Assembly (NCBI GenBank): GCA_048941285.1
Contig: JBHLNS010000031.1
Location: 1 to 40,686 of the forward strand
Direction: 5' to 3'
Source of the DNA: Promethearchaeota archaeon
GTDB lineage: Archaea > Asgardarchaeota > Lokiarchaeia > Sigyniarchaeales > SOKP01
Length of the DNA stretch: 40,686 bases
Below, piece after piece: positions 12,642 through 16,508 of the stretch (positions within the stretch are counted from its first letter, which is position 1; each line of letters begins with the position of its first letter). The notes beneath the pieces are model-generated. The model was not told the DNA's origin, made no database searches, and saw nothing but the letters and a program-made list of their open reading frames with translations. The position numbers were made by a program, and so were the translations under genes.

Positions 12642-12989
12642 ATGACGAAAGAAATTGATCTTGAAAATATTGGTACGTATATAAAAGCACTCCATTGCCA
12701 AATTCGGTGGGTTTTAATAGATATTTTAAGAGATGGGCCAAAATCTTCTGATGAAATTTTTAATCATCTGAAAAATGTTAGTAAAAACATGAATGAGAAT
12801 AACCTGTGTCATGGTATGTGTGGTAAAGGAGATTTTAAGGATTTAAAGAAGCCATCATTGTATTATCATCTTAGAGAATTGGAAAGTGTAGGTATTATTA
12901 AGGCAGATTATAAACCAAGTGAAAGTAAAAGAGCTCCTGAAAAAGTATGGAAATTAAATATGGAAAGATTAACAATAAATTTGAAATAG
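12642..12989 (+). CDS. ArsR-like winged-helix regulator with Cys/His insert
   Basis: KALHCQIRWVLIDILRDGPKS...LYYHLRELESVGII; insert LCHGMCGKG. Confidence 0.8.
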   Translation: MTKEIDLENIGTYIKALHCQIRWVLIDILRDGPKSSDEIFNHLKNVSKNMNENNLCHGMCGKGDFKDLKKPSLYYHLRELESVGIIKADYKPSESKRAPEKVWKLNMERLTINLK

Positions 12990-13228
12990 ATTTCCTTTTT
13001 GTTTGAAATATCGTATTAGCTATTTCTAATATTAGTGAAAGATTTTCTGCCTTTAAGAAAAGATTTTATCTTAATGAGAATCAGAAATGTTTTAATTATT
13101 ATCCAAGCTCATAAGTATGCTCAAACCGAAGGATATAGAATATGAAAATATTGCAGGTTTTAGCCAATATATAGTTCAATAATGAACTCATTGTGCTTTT
13201 TTTAAAAATTTAAAATAGGAAATTGTTA

Positions 13229-14875
13229 TTAAATTCTCATTTTTATTTTAGGTCTACTTATGATAAAATCACATTTAGGACAAATTTTATAATAGCGATA
13301 TTCTTGCATAGTACTAAAAAAGCTTGAACCAAGGATACCCGCTGGTAAAATAAAAATTGATACTCCCAGAAATGCTAAAACTATAGTAAAAAAACGGCCA
13401 CCCGTAGTTACAGGATACACATCACCAAATCCAGTAGTCGTAAATGTGATAATTCCCATCCATAACGTAGTAAGTATATCTGGAAATTTAGCTGGTTGTG
13501 CACTTCTTTCTAAATAATAAATTAGAGTAGAACCAAATATAAGAAATATCCAGCAGAAAATGATTGTAGCAAGAAATTCACGTTTTGTTTCCTTAAAAAT
13601 TATTTTAGTAACTCTAAATACATCAACAAAGTGACCAATTTTAAATATAATTAACATCCTCAAAATTTGGAGATATAAAACTATAATAGGAACCAAATTG
13701 AAAACAAATATTAAACAAAGCGCGAGGAGGGTAATCATATCAATAATAGCTATAGGACTGAAGACATATTTTATCCTTCCTTTCACGGGATCTTTATATT
13801 TTTCTTTTTTTGTAGCAATTATGCACCACACTCGTAATATATATTCAATGGTAAAGACAATTATTGAAAATATTAATAAAGAATTTAATAAAACTCTAAA
13901 TTCTAATGACAAATTCGCATTTGTTTCTACCATTATTGCCAAAACATTTAAGGTTATAAGGCTTATAAAGAAAAAAAATACAATTCTCTGGCCTAATTTC
14001 GTCGGAAAATTAAACTGCATCAATTTAAATACTTTCTTCTTGAGGTTCCTCTTATCGTTAGATTTGATAGTATTTTTTCGTTCATTTTTTTTTTTTAATT
14101 CTGTTATAAATGCAGATTTTTGAATTGTTTCCTGACAATTAGGGCAAATCTCTGAAGACGGCTTTCTTTCTTCAATTTCATCAAGAAATCCTGATACAAT
14201 AACGCTAGCAGGTAATAAAAATAATGTTATTCCTGCTAATGATATGATTCCCGATATGATTTTTCCTATTGGTGTTAATGGTACAATCTCTCCATAACCT
14301 ATTGTAAAAAGGTTTATTGCTGTAAACCACATAGCGCTAAAAAGATTTGTGATTTCACTAGGTTGTGCTTCATGTTCAGCTATATATATGAAGATAGTCC
14401 CAAAAAACAACAAAATTAAACAAAGCATTAAAGTAATTAATAGTTCTTCTTTTTTGCGTCTAATTACTGCAAAAATAATTTTAAGTGACCCAGAATAGCG
14501 AGCAAATTTAAGAAATACAAAAAAACGGAATACTCGGGCAATCTCCATCATTTCATCAAAAAATATACCTATGAAAAAAAATATGAATGAAATAGCACTA
14601 AGTAAATCAATTATCCCTATAATACTTATAAGATAATCTTTTTGATTATATGTCCAAATGCGTAGAGCATATTCTAAGATAAATGTAAAACCTGTAATAC
14701 ACGAGAAGATACCAAAAACTAGATAAAAATTTTGCCAGAGATCAGTGTTACTTTCTAATATTGCGATAATGCCATATGCTAGAATTGAAAAAATCAACCA
14801 GATTGCTGTTAACCTAGCTGAGATGCTTCTTACTTTAGGAAAACCCAGTGTTTTAAGAATTTTTTCCTTAAACAT
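13229..14875 (-). CDS. Two-repeat (2x6TM) voltage-gated K+ channel-like protein
   Basis: Two complete S1-S6 units. Each has EY.LR.W (S2), IID (S3), an S4, AQP, a pore loop (TIGYGE at ~14288-14305; TTGFGD at ~13421-13438), LPA in S6 and a trailing ICPxC. Confidence 0.9.
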   Translation of the reverse strand: MFKEKILKTLGFPKVRSISARLTAIWLIFSILAYGIIAILESNTDLWQNFYLVFGIFSCITGFTFILEYALRIWTYNQKDYLISIIGIIDLLSAISFIFFFIGIFFDEMMEIARVFRFFVFLKFARYSGSLKIIFAVIRRKKEELLITLMLCLILLFFGTIFIYIAEHEAQPSEITNLFSAMWFTAINLFTIGYGEIVPLTPIGKIISGIISLAGITLFLLPASVIVSGFLDEIEERKPSSEICPNCQETIQKSAFITELKKKNERKNTIKSNDKRNLKKKVFKLMQFNFPTKLGQRIVFFFFISLITLNVLAIMVETNANLSLEFRVLLNSLLIFSIIVFTIEYILRVWCIIATKKEKYKDPVKGRIKYVFSPIAIIDMITLLALCLIFVFNLVPIIVLYLQILRMLIIFKIGHFVDVFRVTKIIFKETKREFLATIIFCWIFLIFGSTLIYYLERSAQPAKFPDILTTLWMGIITFTTTGFGDVYPVTTGGRFFTIVLAFLGVSIFILPAGILGSSFFSTMQEYRYYKICPKCDFIISRPKIKMRI

Positions 14876-15086
14876 ATGCTTTCAGTATCTCTATTTTGTT
14901 ACATGAAGATAACTTGAATTTTGAAATTTTTTAAAAATATTATCAAAATTCATGTTTTTATAGATGTTGATAGAAATAAGTCTAAGTTTGAAATTAATTC
15001 ATTCATTATGTAATCAAAAAAAAGAAAAAAGAGAAGAAACTATAATTTAAAGGAAATGGAAAAATAAAAAAAAAAAATAAAAATCA

Positions 15087-16508
15087 ATGATAGAAGATAC
15101 TGAAAAAATATTTGCATTGGTAGCTGAAAGAGCTCAATTAGCAGAGAATGTTGAAGGAGTTCGTTCGATTTTGTTATTTATGTATCGTTTTCCTTCTCTT
15201 AAGAATAAAAAACTATCACAAAAAACAGGTATTGCGATTCCTACTTTAGCTGCTGTCAGAAATGAGTTATTTAAAGCCGGTATTATTGAGAAAAATAATT
15301 TTCTTGGTGAAAAAGGGAGAGAATGGATAAAAACAAATCTAAATTTGAATTTTGAATATGATCCATTACCAGGCAATTTTGATAATAACATTAGAGAACT
15401 ACCTGATGAATTTGAATATTTAAATCAGATAAAAAGTCTTCTTAAGAATCGACCAACTCCAGAATTTGCACTTGATCAATCTCACGCAGATTTTACAACT
15501 GTATTAAAGAAGACACTTTATTTAGTAAAAAAAGGAGATATTGAAGGGAGAAAGATTATTTTTTTAGGAGATGATGATCTCATTTCTTTAGCCATAGGTT
15601 TAACCAACTTAGCAAAGGAAATTAAAGTAATAGATATTGACAATAGAATTTTAGATTTCATATCCAACTCCGTAGAGGAGCTCTCATTTCGTAATTTTAA
15701 TACTTTATTGCATGATTTAAAAAAACCATGCCCTAATGACATCATAAATAAATATGATATAGTTATAATGGACCCTCCTTATACTAATGAAGGTTTACGG
15801 CTATTTTTGAAGAGAGCTAGACAAGTTTTAAGATCAAATATCAATATTGAAGGTAGGAACTATCCAATTATTGGTAAAAAATGTCTTCTTAGTTTTGGAA
15901 ATAAACCTCCAGAAGAGGTGTTGAAATTACAATCATCAATATTGGATCACGGATTTATAATTAACGAAATGCTCCCTGACTTCAATCACTATGAAGGTGC
16001 GAGCATTATAGGAAAATTTAGTCACCTCTATTATTTACAATCTGTAATAAATCCAAATGCTAAATATAATCTTAGCTTTGCAACTCATCCCATCTATACT
16101 TCCGAAGTTAGATCCTTAATTAAATATCCATTTCGGCCAGTGGGTTATCATTTTGTGGGAGAAATGCATTTTGAAAAACAAGCTCAATTATTGGAAAATG
16201 AAAAAATTCAGAAGCTGTTTCTAGATTCTCTTATAAATGCAGATTTGACCATTATAGATGTATTTCATCATAATTATCATCCTTATGGATATAGTGCTAT
16301 TGCAATATTAAAAACAAGTCATGCAGCAATTCATACATGGCCAGAACATGGATATATTAGCATTGATATTTTTATATGTGAGGCATATGCTAAAGGTTTA
16401 GAGGTAATAAAATTCTTAAAAAAGCAATTAAAACCTCTAAAATCAAAATTTTTTTACGCTGAACGCGGTATAAAAACTACTATCAAATATGAACAGATTG
16501 ATCTATAA
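15087..16508 (+). CDS. BpsA/DUF43-type aminopropyltransferase fused to a C-terminal pyruvoyl S-adenosylmethionine decarboxylase domain
   Basis: N-terminal HTH-like region; DQ, IFLGDDDLISLA, DID, DPPYT.EG..LFL.R (BpsA family). The last ~120 aa contain G.H, PYGYSAIAILKTSHAAIHTWPEHGYISIDIFIC and ERG (SpeD/SpeH family). Confidence 0.85.
   Translation: MIEDTEKIFALVAERAQLAENVEGVRSILLFMYRFPSLKNKKLSQKTGIAIPTLAAVRNELFKAGIIEKNNFLGEKGREWIKTNLNLNFEYDPLPGNFDNNIRELPDEFEYLNQIKSLLKNRPTPEFALDQSHADFTTVLKKTLYLVKKGDIEGRKIIFLGDDDLISLAIGLTNLAKEIKVIDIDNRILDFISNSVEELSFRNFNTLLHDLKKPCPNDIINKYDIVIMDPPYTNEGLRLFLKRARQVLRSNINIEGRNYPIIGKKCLLSFGNKPPEEVLKLQSSILDHGFIINEMLPDFNHYEGASIIGKFSHLYYLQSVINPNAKYNLSFATHPIYTSEVRSLIKYPFRPVGYHFVGEMHFEKQAQLLENEKIQKLFLDSLINADLTIIDVFHHNYHPYGYSAIAILKTSHAAIHTWPEHGYISIDIFICEAYAKGLEVIKFLKKQLKPLKSKFFYAERGIKTTIKYEQIDL

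Follow-up and report, generated by a model that had tools for sequence, protein, structure and literature searches.

A two-repeat Kv-type channel encoded by a single archaeal gene

The gene analyzed here lies in a contig of a Promethearchaeota archaeon (assembly GCA_048941285.1, contig JBHLNS010000031.1), and the whole stretch that was studied, positions 1 to 40,686 in forward-strand numbering, is called the window below. The gene (13229..14875, minus strand) encodes a protein of 548 amino acids (aa) in which two six-transmembrane (6TM) units of the voltage-gated K+ (Kv) channel type follow each other in one chain (2 x 6TM). We consider it probable that this is a single gene for a tandem two-repeat member of the Kv superfamily, with 12 transmembrane helices (12-TM) and two pore loops, that it belongs to a conserved family of Loki-type Asgard archaea, and that its product forms a dimeric K+ channel whose two units were joined once, at an early stage.

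The open reading frame (ORF) has an ATG start, zero internal stops and a stop codon at 13229-13231. The Pfam model Ion_trans (PF00520) matched the 548-aa protein in two stretches (E 3.9e-30; 105.3 bits versus a cut-off of 25), which reached 62.5 and 55.5 bits when they were scored singly in a genome-wide search, and Ion_trans_2 (PF07885) also matched two stretches above its curated cut-off (E 2.9e-26). When one half of the protein was aligned with the other, 66 of 265 residues were identical (25%) with an E value of 2e-30, so that the internal repeat is far beyond chance. An earlier note on this DNA, made from the sequence alone, had described one ORF with two full S1-S6 units, and the ORF, the paired stretches of both Pfam models and the structure model presented below bear this out. 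In the host genome, which is 94% complete, no other gene was matched by PF00520 or PF07885.

A sequencing or assembly error that joined two adjacent genes in this contig would give the same picture. The only argument for such an artefact is the general risk attached to metagenome-assembled genomes, and we regard it as negligible, since the frame is equally uninterrupted in 16 further genomes, with identities of 37-82%, and in dozens of independent entries of NCBI, JGI, ENA and Logan, and since the sequence that links the repeats varies yet never carries a stop. Hence, this is a real single gene. In a survey of 400 genomes of the same phylum, the window's own genome included, matches were obtained in 17 genomes at 18 places, and all 18 were free of internal stops. 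The short database entries P0041-P0043, P0010 and P0039 continue across the linker into repeat II and are thus truncated versions rather than single-repeat genes. Two separate genes, the arrangement that the earlier note had named as speaking against its proposal, were therefore seen neither at the 18 places nor among these entries.

Distribution and conservation of the family

About 40 full-length relatives came from a word-indexed search that covered 5.8 billion proteins; their lengths are 556-706 aa, their identities 34-80% and their coverage 91-100% (88% for P0036). A profile search that covered 1.84 billion cluster representatives added the distant members P0121, P0122 and P0124-P0127. 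In total, 43 distinct proteins were tabulated in which both repeats are complete and each is followed by a CxxC motif (see below), and all the taxon-labelled ones are Asgard. The 12 taxon-labelled relatives with at least 44% identity carry, without exception, the names Promethearchaeota, Hodarchaeota, Hermodarchaeota or Thorarchaeota, in agreement with the Asgard host that had been thought probable from the letters of the window. The NCBI and JGI names of the members go no further than "potassium channel family protein", "ion transporter" or "voltage-gated potassium channel".

Among the 400 genomes the gene occurs in 7 of the 53 other genomes of its own genus, in 15 of 134 of its own family and in 1 of 14 of a second family of the same order, and it was found in none of the other sampled families of the phylum, so that it is confined to one order. 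Because of this patchy occurrence, the channel gene is an accessory gene of Loki-type Asgard archaea and not a phylum-wide trait.

In an alignment of 28 sequences (A1), the filter residues G193, Y194, G195, G482 and G484 and the four cysteines C244, C247, C532 and C535 were invariant in 28/28, as were R72, D90, F341, R348, D379 and H415. The mean pairwise identity was highest in the two pores (0.61 and 0.58), lower in the two sensors (0.36 and 0.45) and lowest in the linker (0.22).

Elements of the two repeats

Repeat I (residues 1-252; 14120..14875; all the features given here are on the minus strand) was delimited from the model and its structural match and consists of a pre-S1 helix, S1-S4, the S4-S5 linker, S5, the pore helix, S6 and a CPNC tail. 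Repeat II (residues 278-548; 13232..14044), which was placed with its KCNQ2 matches, has a pre-S1 helix, S1-S4, S5, a pore helix, S6 and a CPKC tail. The two are connected by a lysine-rich linker (residues 253-277; 14045..14119) that is variable among the members and predicted to be disordered.

The K+ channel P-loop signature (TxGYG or TxGFG) was found in both pore loops. The filter of pore 1 is the canonical TIGYG (residues 191-195; 14291..14305), with GYG in 43/43 members, and that of pore 2 is the variant TTGFG (residues 480-484; 13424..13438), with GFG in 31/43; translation confirmed their contexts as NLFTIGYGE and TFTTTGFGD. The asymmetric GYG-then-GFG pair announced in the earlier note is thus present. 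GFG filters stay K+-selective in EAG/hERG and K2P channels, and, judging from its filters, the pore of the Asgard protein would conduct K+.

The S4 helix of repeat I (residues 107-127; 14495..14557) carries R114, R117, K123 and R126, that is, four basic residues, the other members having 3-5 R/K, so that this range holds in 43/43. The earlier note had named these four residues correctly and had their spacing wrong, as five residues, not four, separate R117 from K123; with the true spacing (R114..R117.....K123..R126), they follow the every-third-residue pattern with one position uncharged. The S4 helix of repeat II (residues 396-415; 13631..13690) is poor in charge and holds R405, K411 and the terminal, invariant H415, as the note had it, so that the sensors are indeed unequal. 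Residues of the charge-transfer type were located in both sensors, namely F65, E68 and D90 in repeat I and F341, E344 and D379 in repeat II. D90, F341 and D379 are invariant and E68 nearly so, whereas F65 and E344 are known from the sequence of the window protein alone.

Each repeat ends in ICPxC, as had been noticed, and translation gave ICPNC and ICPKC. The first CxxC (CPNC, Cys244 and Cys247; 14135..14146) is placed 15 residues past the S6-I glycine in a predicted beta hairpin, and the second (CPKC, Cys532 and Cys535; 13271..13282) 16 residues past the S6-II glycine between predicted beta strands; both motifs are kept in 43/43 members. Only 28 residues follow S6-II, and a long C-terminal region like that of KCNQ is not present.

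Structure model and structural matches

An AlphaFold2 model was built on alignment A1. It reached a mean predicted local distance difference test score (pLDDT) of 80.6 and a predicted template modelling score (pTM) of 0.71, and it contains 12 transmembrane helices and two pore helices. The helices of repeat I span residues 18-41, 44-75, 85-103, 107-127, 129-140, 142-167, 178-189 and 202-237. In the linker, residues 259-275 have a pLDDT below 50. The first CxxC sits in a beta hairpin formed by residues 241-243 and 250-252 (block pLDDT 63-64), and the second is flanked by strands 528-531 and 538-540 (block pLDDT 58).

With VIA-align, repeat I (model residues 2-238) was superposed on the Kv1.2-2.1 chimera over 222 residues (Z 14.7, root-mean-square deviation (rmsd) 2.6 A), and repeat II on KCNQ2 over 254 residues (Z 17.0, rmsd 3.0 A, 26% identity). 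The joint alignment of both repeats with Nav1.5 spans 451 residues (Z 14.4, rmsd 7.2 A). Since they align jointly, the two repeats of the model are placed in the manner of neighbouring repeats of a pseudo-tetramer. A prediction of the dimer with two copies of residues 20-519 and alignment A1 scored 0.14 versus a mark of 0.42, and this value, obtained without controls, speaks neither for nor against dimerization.

Sequence searches of the PDB pointed to the same group of channels. In the best 60 of 145 matches, repeat II was closest to KCNQ2, KCNQ5 and KCNQ4 (E about 1e-24; KCNQ2, E 6.7e-25, over residues 296-528) and repeat I to Kv4, Kv2 and Kv1 (about 1e-22 to 1e-18). Two-pore channels (TPCs) were absent from the best 60 of these 145 matches and from the best 50 of Foldseek and of VIA-align, which is not to be taken as evidence of unrelatedness.

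Origin of the two repeats

The profile search gave 33,865 matches of all lengths at E 0.001 or better, and thousands of them are single-repeat proteins of about 260-330 aa. When single-repeat relatives shorter than 320 aa were counted manually, 73 of 83 had a C-terminal CxxC, mostly CPHC, about 15 residues after S6. Single-repeat relatives are spread over many bacterial phyla (loci L017-L096), and their identity to repeat II is 29-40%. A better score against repeat II than against repeat I was obtained for 78 of the 80 proteins P0041-P0120, which makes repeat I the more diverged half.

Trees were inferred on the separated repeats with FastTree (148 rows) and with IQ-TREE under LG+C20 with posterior mean site frequencies (PMSF; 86 rows, a set reduced by 12 near-duplicate members, by five further proteins with several repeats and by 24 single-repeat rows). 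In the IQ-TREE analysis all the repeat-II sequences formed one clade, with a support of 99 in the Shimodaira-Hasegawa-like approximate likelihood ratio test (SH-aLRT), and all the repeat-I sequences formed another (SH-aLRT 88). The order of the sub-clades is mirrored between the two clades, in agreement with FastTree. The tandem proteins P0129, which has one close relative, and P0131, both without CxxC, join the base of both repeat clades (IQ-TREE). As each repeat forms one clade and their sub-clade orders mirror each other, the two units were joined once, before the family diversified. In both trees the two repeat clades branch among the prokaryotic CPHC-tailed single-repeat Kv channels. This placement, together with the CxxC of the single-repeat relatives, agrees with the earlier proposal that both repeats are related to the common prokaryotic CPxC Kv group.

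The event itself would have been one duplication or one fusion of a CPHC-tailed single-repeat Kv gene, followed by divergence of the halves. With no change in the proposed function, the protein could have arisen by fusion of two neighbouring genes that had already diverged as the partners of a heteromeric pair, rather than by duplication within a gene. The free IQ-TREE search did not resolve the repeat-I and repeat-II clades as sisters, and it placed a true single-repeat protein, P0186 (266 aa, CPYC), beside the repeat-I clade. The preference of 78/80 proteins for repeat II also counts for this origin. In FastTree, on the other hand, the two clades share a node (support 89), and a tree constrained to hold all the family repeats together was 10.96 log-likelihood units better than the tree of the free search, with a p value in the approximately unbiased (AU) test of 0.706, although the group for this test was picked after the tree had been inspected. 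In addition, the two repeats of P0040 and P0121, the deepest members, are more alike: each has an R-rich S4 with GH at its end and the loop RVW...KY.DP.KGRL.

The scan of contigs is also relevant here. At least 80 loci were listed, and all of them hold single-repeat bacterial genes except one. In Methanothrix sp. (L030:3995-5681), two single-repeat Kv-type genes of 266 and 277 aa, with 47% identity between them, lie about 50 bp apart. CxxC is lacking in the first, whose filter, TTVGDN, is degenerate, and the second has TVGYGD and CPHC. The locus likely represents a heteromeric pair in unfused form, with an origin independent of that of the Asgard family. It indicates that such pairs exist in archaea, but it branches elsewhere in the tree and is not ancestral. 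Taken together, the data somewhat favour duplication within the gene, and fusion of two older paralogues is a possible, less likely origin.

Relation to eukaryotic tandem channels

Another alternative is that the Asgard protein is an orthologue or the direct ancestor of the eukaryotic TPCs, and thereby of the 12-TM step that led to the four-repeat Cav/Nav channels. The layout of 2 x 6TM with unequal sensors is shared with TPCs, the host is an Asgard archaeon, and neighbouring repeats of Nav1.5 match the two repeats of the model in superposition. However, both filters are of the K+ type, the best sequence matches in the PDB are KCNQ, Kv4, Kv2 and Kv1, as described above, and among the 400 genomes members came from a single order of the phylum. 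In the trees, furthermore, the repeat clades lie among the CPHC-tailed prokaryotic channels, whereas the repeats of the four-repeat, non-K+ protein P0151 branch apart from them. P0254 (eukprot), the only protein known to be eukaryotic in a tree that included no TPC sequence, has two repeats that are each other's sisters with a support of 100 and that fall outside the Asgard clades (IQ-TREE). We therefore regard orthology or direct ancestry as highly improbable. From the K+ filters and the placement of the repeats among prokaryotic single-repeat channels, the origin of the family is most likely independent of the eukaryotic two-pore, tandem Kv-like and Cav/Nav channels; the earlier note had likewise preferred an independent duplication to TPC orthology.

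Other multi-repeat proteins were encountered in the same searches. P0123 (1493 aa) has four complete 6-TM repeats, each with TIGYG, and P0138 is a two-repeat relative whose repeats are nearly identical. The two form a tight clade of their own in FastTree, their relatives include sequences from marine-eukaryote transcriptome sources (merc, mmetsp), and P0123, P0128 and P0138 are probably four-repeat and two-repeat K+ channels of protists. P0246 (597 aa, from a JGI metagenome contig) has two repeats without K+ filters, followed by CSEC and CSVC; its repeats cluster with those of P0151 in FastTree (support 98), and it may be a two-repeat relative of the Cav/Nav type.

Asymmetry of filters and sensors within the family

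The differences between the repeats are not constant across the family. In pore 2, GFG is found in 31 of the 43 members, GYG in 10 and GSG in 2, as opposed to GYG in every pore 1. Eight members branch deeply (P0040, P0121, P0122, P0124-P0127 and P0265); in these, the filter of pore 2 is GYG or GSG and S4 of repeat II holds 2-4 R/K. Four basic residues are reached in P0040, P0121 and P0124, and in P0040 and P0121 S4 is R-rich in repeat I as well as in repeat II. Where pore 1 has TIGYG, in 35 members that include the window protein, S4 of repeat II holds 1-3 R/K, and 31 of the 35 have GFG in pore 2. Since the deep-branching members have GYG or GSG together with a charged S4-II, the GFG filter and the charge-poor second sensor are derived traits that were gained after the joining of the repeats. 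Such an asymmetry, arising after the joining, is as expected if the halves divide their tasks. P0127 and P0265 have TLGSGD in pore 2 and keep both CxxC motifs, and selectivity is possibly altered in these two proteins.

Proposed mechanism and points that weigh against it

Four pore loops make up a K+ pore and two come from each chain, so that a dimer is expected, in which repeats I and II would alternate around a pseudo-fourfold pore. Gating would be driven mainly by sensor I (R114, R117, K123 and R126), and sensor II is presumably a weak or silent module, because most of its gating charges were lost in the branch of the window protein. The best NCBIfam match was the model of a hyperpolarization-activated channel, K_channel_Meth, at 65.5 bits versus a cut-off of 300, and, as the score falls under the cut-off, no gating type can be assigned from it. 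The CxxC knuckles, which lie at about the same distance below S6-I and S6-II, may bind a metal, most likely Zn, and clamp the neighbouring S6 ends. A Cys4 zinc site, within the chain or between chains, would be the simplest reading of the four invariant cysteines. Zinc-ribbon models of Pfam matched below their cut-offs (DUF7837, E 0.026 and 15 bits versus 27.8; zf-LITAF-like, E 0.61).

The same residues can be read in another way, namely that the protein is a K+ channel without voltage gating, that its sensors are structural leftovers, and that the eight cysteines of the dimer act as a redox or metal sensor of the S6 gate. S4-II is stripped of most of its charges and S4-I leaves one position of its pattern uncharged, the four cysteines and H415 are invariant, the NCBIfam score does not assign a gating type, and the organisms come from sediment and soil metagenomes, where the redox state varies. 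Against this, S4-I keeps 3-5 R/K in all the members and F/E/D charge-transfer residues are found in both sensors. Furthermore, the same CxxC is present in most of the single-repeat relatives, in many bacterial phyla that include the aerobes Pseudoalteromonas and Tenacibaculum, and for this reason a structural metal site fits better than a specialized sensor. A redox-gated or metal-gated channel is therefore unlikely, and a dimeric channel with one principal voltage sensor is the interpretation that we prefer.

Several observations weigh against this interpretation as a whole. The dimer, the selectivity for K+, the dependence on voltage and the bound metal are each deduced from homology. Among the ordered parts of the model, confidence is lowest around the CxxC motifs (block pLDDT 58-64), and the Methanothrix pair, with CxxC in only one of its two genes, is a poor fit to a strict site made of two halves. 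The support of the repeat-I clade is only moderate (86-88), and the free IQ-TREE search did not resolve it as the sister of the repeat-II clade. The GSG filter of two members indicates that selectivity may vary inside the family, and the patchy occurrence within the genus and the family described above counts on the same side.

Comparison with known systems and significance

The closest known systems are the prokaryotic CPHC single-repeat Kv channels, with which the Asgard protein shares the S1-S6 unit, a filter of the TxGYGD type, AQP after S5, LPAGIL in S6 and the CxxC about 15 residues past S6. They differ in that each of their chains, of about 260-330 aa, holds a single repeat and that the channels are presumably homotetramers, whereas two diverged units are joined in the Asgard family. 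The literature was searched for an explanation of the C-terminal CxxC tail of prokaryotic Kv channels, and a single query returned no paper on this. The Methanothrix pair resembles the family in having two neighbouring, diverged archaeal Kv units, one of them with a degenerate filter, and differs in being two separate genes, in its position in the tree and in the restriction of CxxC to the second gene.

Repeat II resembles KCNQ/Kv7 in an aligned RVW..Y....GR.K loop after S2 and in LPAGILGS.F in S6. KCNQ/Kv7 channels have a long C-terminal region with calmodulin-binding helices, and the Asgard protein is without it. Since repeat II is no less similar to bacterial single-repeat channels, this likeness reflects the whole Kv group and no special link. 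As in K2P channels, one chain contributes two pore loops, so that a dimer is implied, and a GYG-then-GFG filter pair occurs in some K2P channels. These, however, are 4TM/2P proteins without voltage sensors, in contrast to the 12TM/2P chain with two sensors described here. TPC1-3 have a 12-TM chain that must dimerize and two non-equivalent voltage sensors, only one of which is voltage-active in TPCs; their filters are of the Na+/Ca2+ type, not K+, unlike the canonical K+ signatures of the Asgard protein, whose linker is short, lysine-rich, disordered and without EF-hands.

Tandem Kv-like channels of the stramenopile, alveolate and rhizarian (SAR) group, in oomycetes, dinoflagellates and chlorarachniophytes, are the nearest parallel in architecture. 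A 2020 survey in Sci Rep describes tandem Kv-like channels in SAR eukaryotes only, with repeats that are at most about 30% identical, an unequal S4 charge, and first and second repeats in mirrored clades (PMC7576140). On that account they share with the Asgard family the 2 x 6TM layout, K+-type filters, unequal S4 charge and mirrored repeat clades. They differ in their most likely separate origin and in that P0254 and the likely eukaryotic P0138 are without CxxC tails, the host of the Asgard family being archaeal.

Full-text searches of the literature, which reached neither subscription journals nor TCDB, found no account of a 2 x 6TM channel in prokaryotes, so that the many described prokaryotic homologues which the earlier note had counted against its own proposal were not encountered. 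A passage of a 2026 PNAS paper states that the tandem K+ channel architecture has not been observed in prokaryotes (PMC13715775), and the relevant excerpts of PMC12749960, PMC8619664 and PMC7935092 hold nothing on tandem archaeal channels. One section of a 2021 census of Asgard transporters lists for the Loki-type archaeon MK-D1 an uncharacterised "eukaryotic-like" homologue of TC 1.A.1.31.1 in the superfamily of voltage-gated ion channels (VIC; PMC7997004), which may be a member of the two-repeat family.

The Kv unit itself is well known in prokaryotes, and what is new for them is its covalent two-repeat form. In textbook accounts, pseudo-tetrameric channels, first the two-pore and then the Cav/Nav channels, derived from 6-TM subunits by two internal duplications, and the joined stages are placed in eukaryotes. 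In its strongest form, the significance of the present family would be that the joining of voltage-gated units predates eukaryotes in their archaeal lineage, and that in this family a relative of the 12-TM stage of TPC, Cav and Nav survives, its K+ filter being ancestral. If this were true, the 6TM to 12TM to 24TM joining that is treated as a eukaryotic invention would have an archaeal start, but we hold it to be very unlikely. The weaker form is the more likely one: this would be the first prokaryotic family of covalently linked two-repeat channels of the voltage-gated type, and an independent repeat of duplication, sensor silencing and filter asymmetry. Its importance is limited by its patchy occurrence, in one order among the 400 genomes, and by an origin apparently independent of the eukaryotic families.

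Even so, the first step of joining is seen here in archaea, and the family keeps a graded series, from deep members with GYG/GYG filters and two charged S4 helices to later ones with GFG in filter 2 and a charge-poor sensor II. Repeat specialization after joining is thereby open to direct test, and a small prokaryotic protein should be easier to express than eukaryotic channels. The family also draws attention to the CxxC tail, which is widespread in prokaryotic Kv channels.

Genomic context and further observations

P0024, P0025, P0033 and P0036 have an N-terminal extension (A1 columns 1-35) with a conserved C-x2-C...H-x5-H arrangement (CPICGK..NP.S..HINS.FHQ.AL), which resembles a small C2H2 zinc finger. 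When P0024 and P0025 were run against Pfam, this extension had no match at E 0.01 or better.

The channel gene is bordered on both sides by genes of the opposite strand, so that it stands alone. One neighbour (15087-16508, plus strand, 473 aa) combines a BpsA_C domain (branched-chain polyamine synthase; E 1.7e-45) with an S-adenosylmethionine decarboxylase (AdoMetDC) domain (E 1.7e-25). When the loci of the orthologues were compared, no conserved partner gene was found. The flanking winged helix-turn-helix (wHTH) and BpsA-AdoMetDC genes are common only with the closest genome (L002), and the ATP-binding cassette (ABC) ATPase gene is common with two further genomes. Matching sequencing runs amounted to 14 rows from 8 studies of sediment, soil and marine-sediment metagenomes, all of them DNA and none RNA, and are uninformative on expression.

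The closest orthologue, L002, belongs to a genome with another genus code (G258). Its channel is 82% identical to that of the window, and both flanking genes within 12642-16508 are conserved at 78-84%, whereas the copies from the window's own genus are only 71-74% identical to the window channel. Transfer within the family, mis-binning of the window's contig or uneven limits of the genera are possible causes of this closeness.

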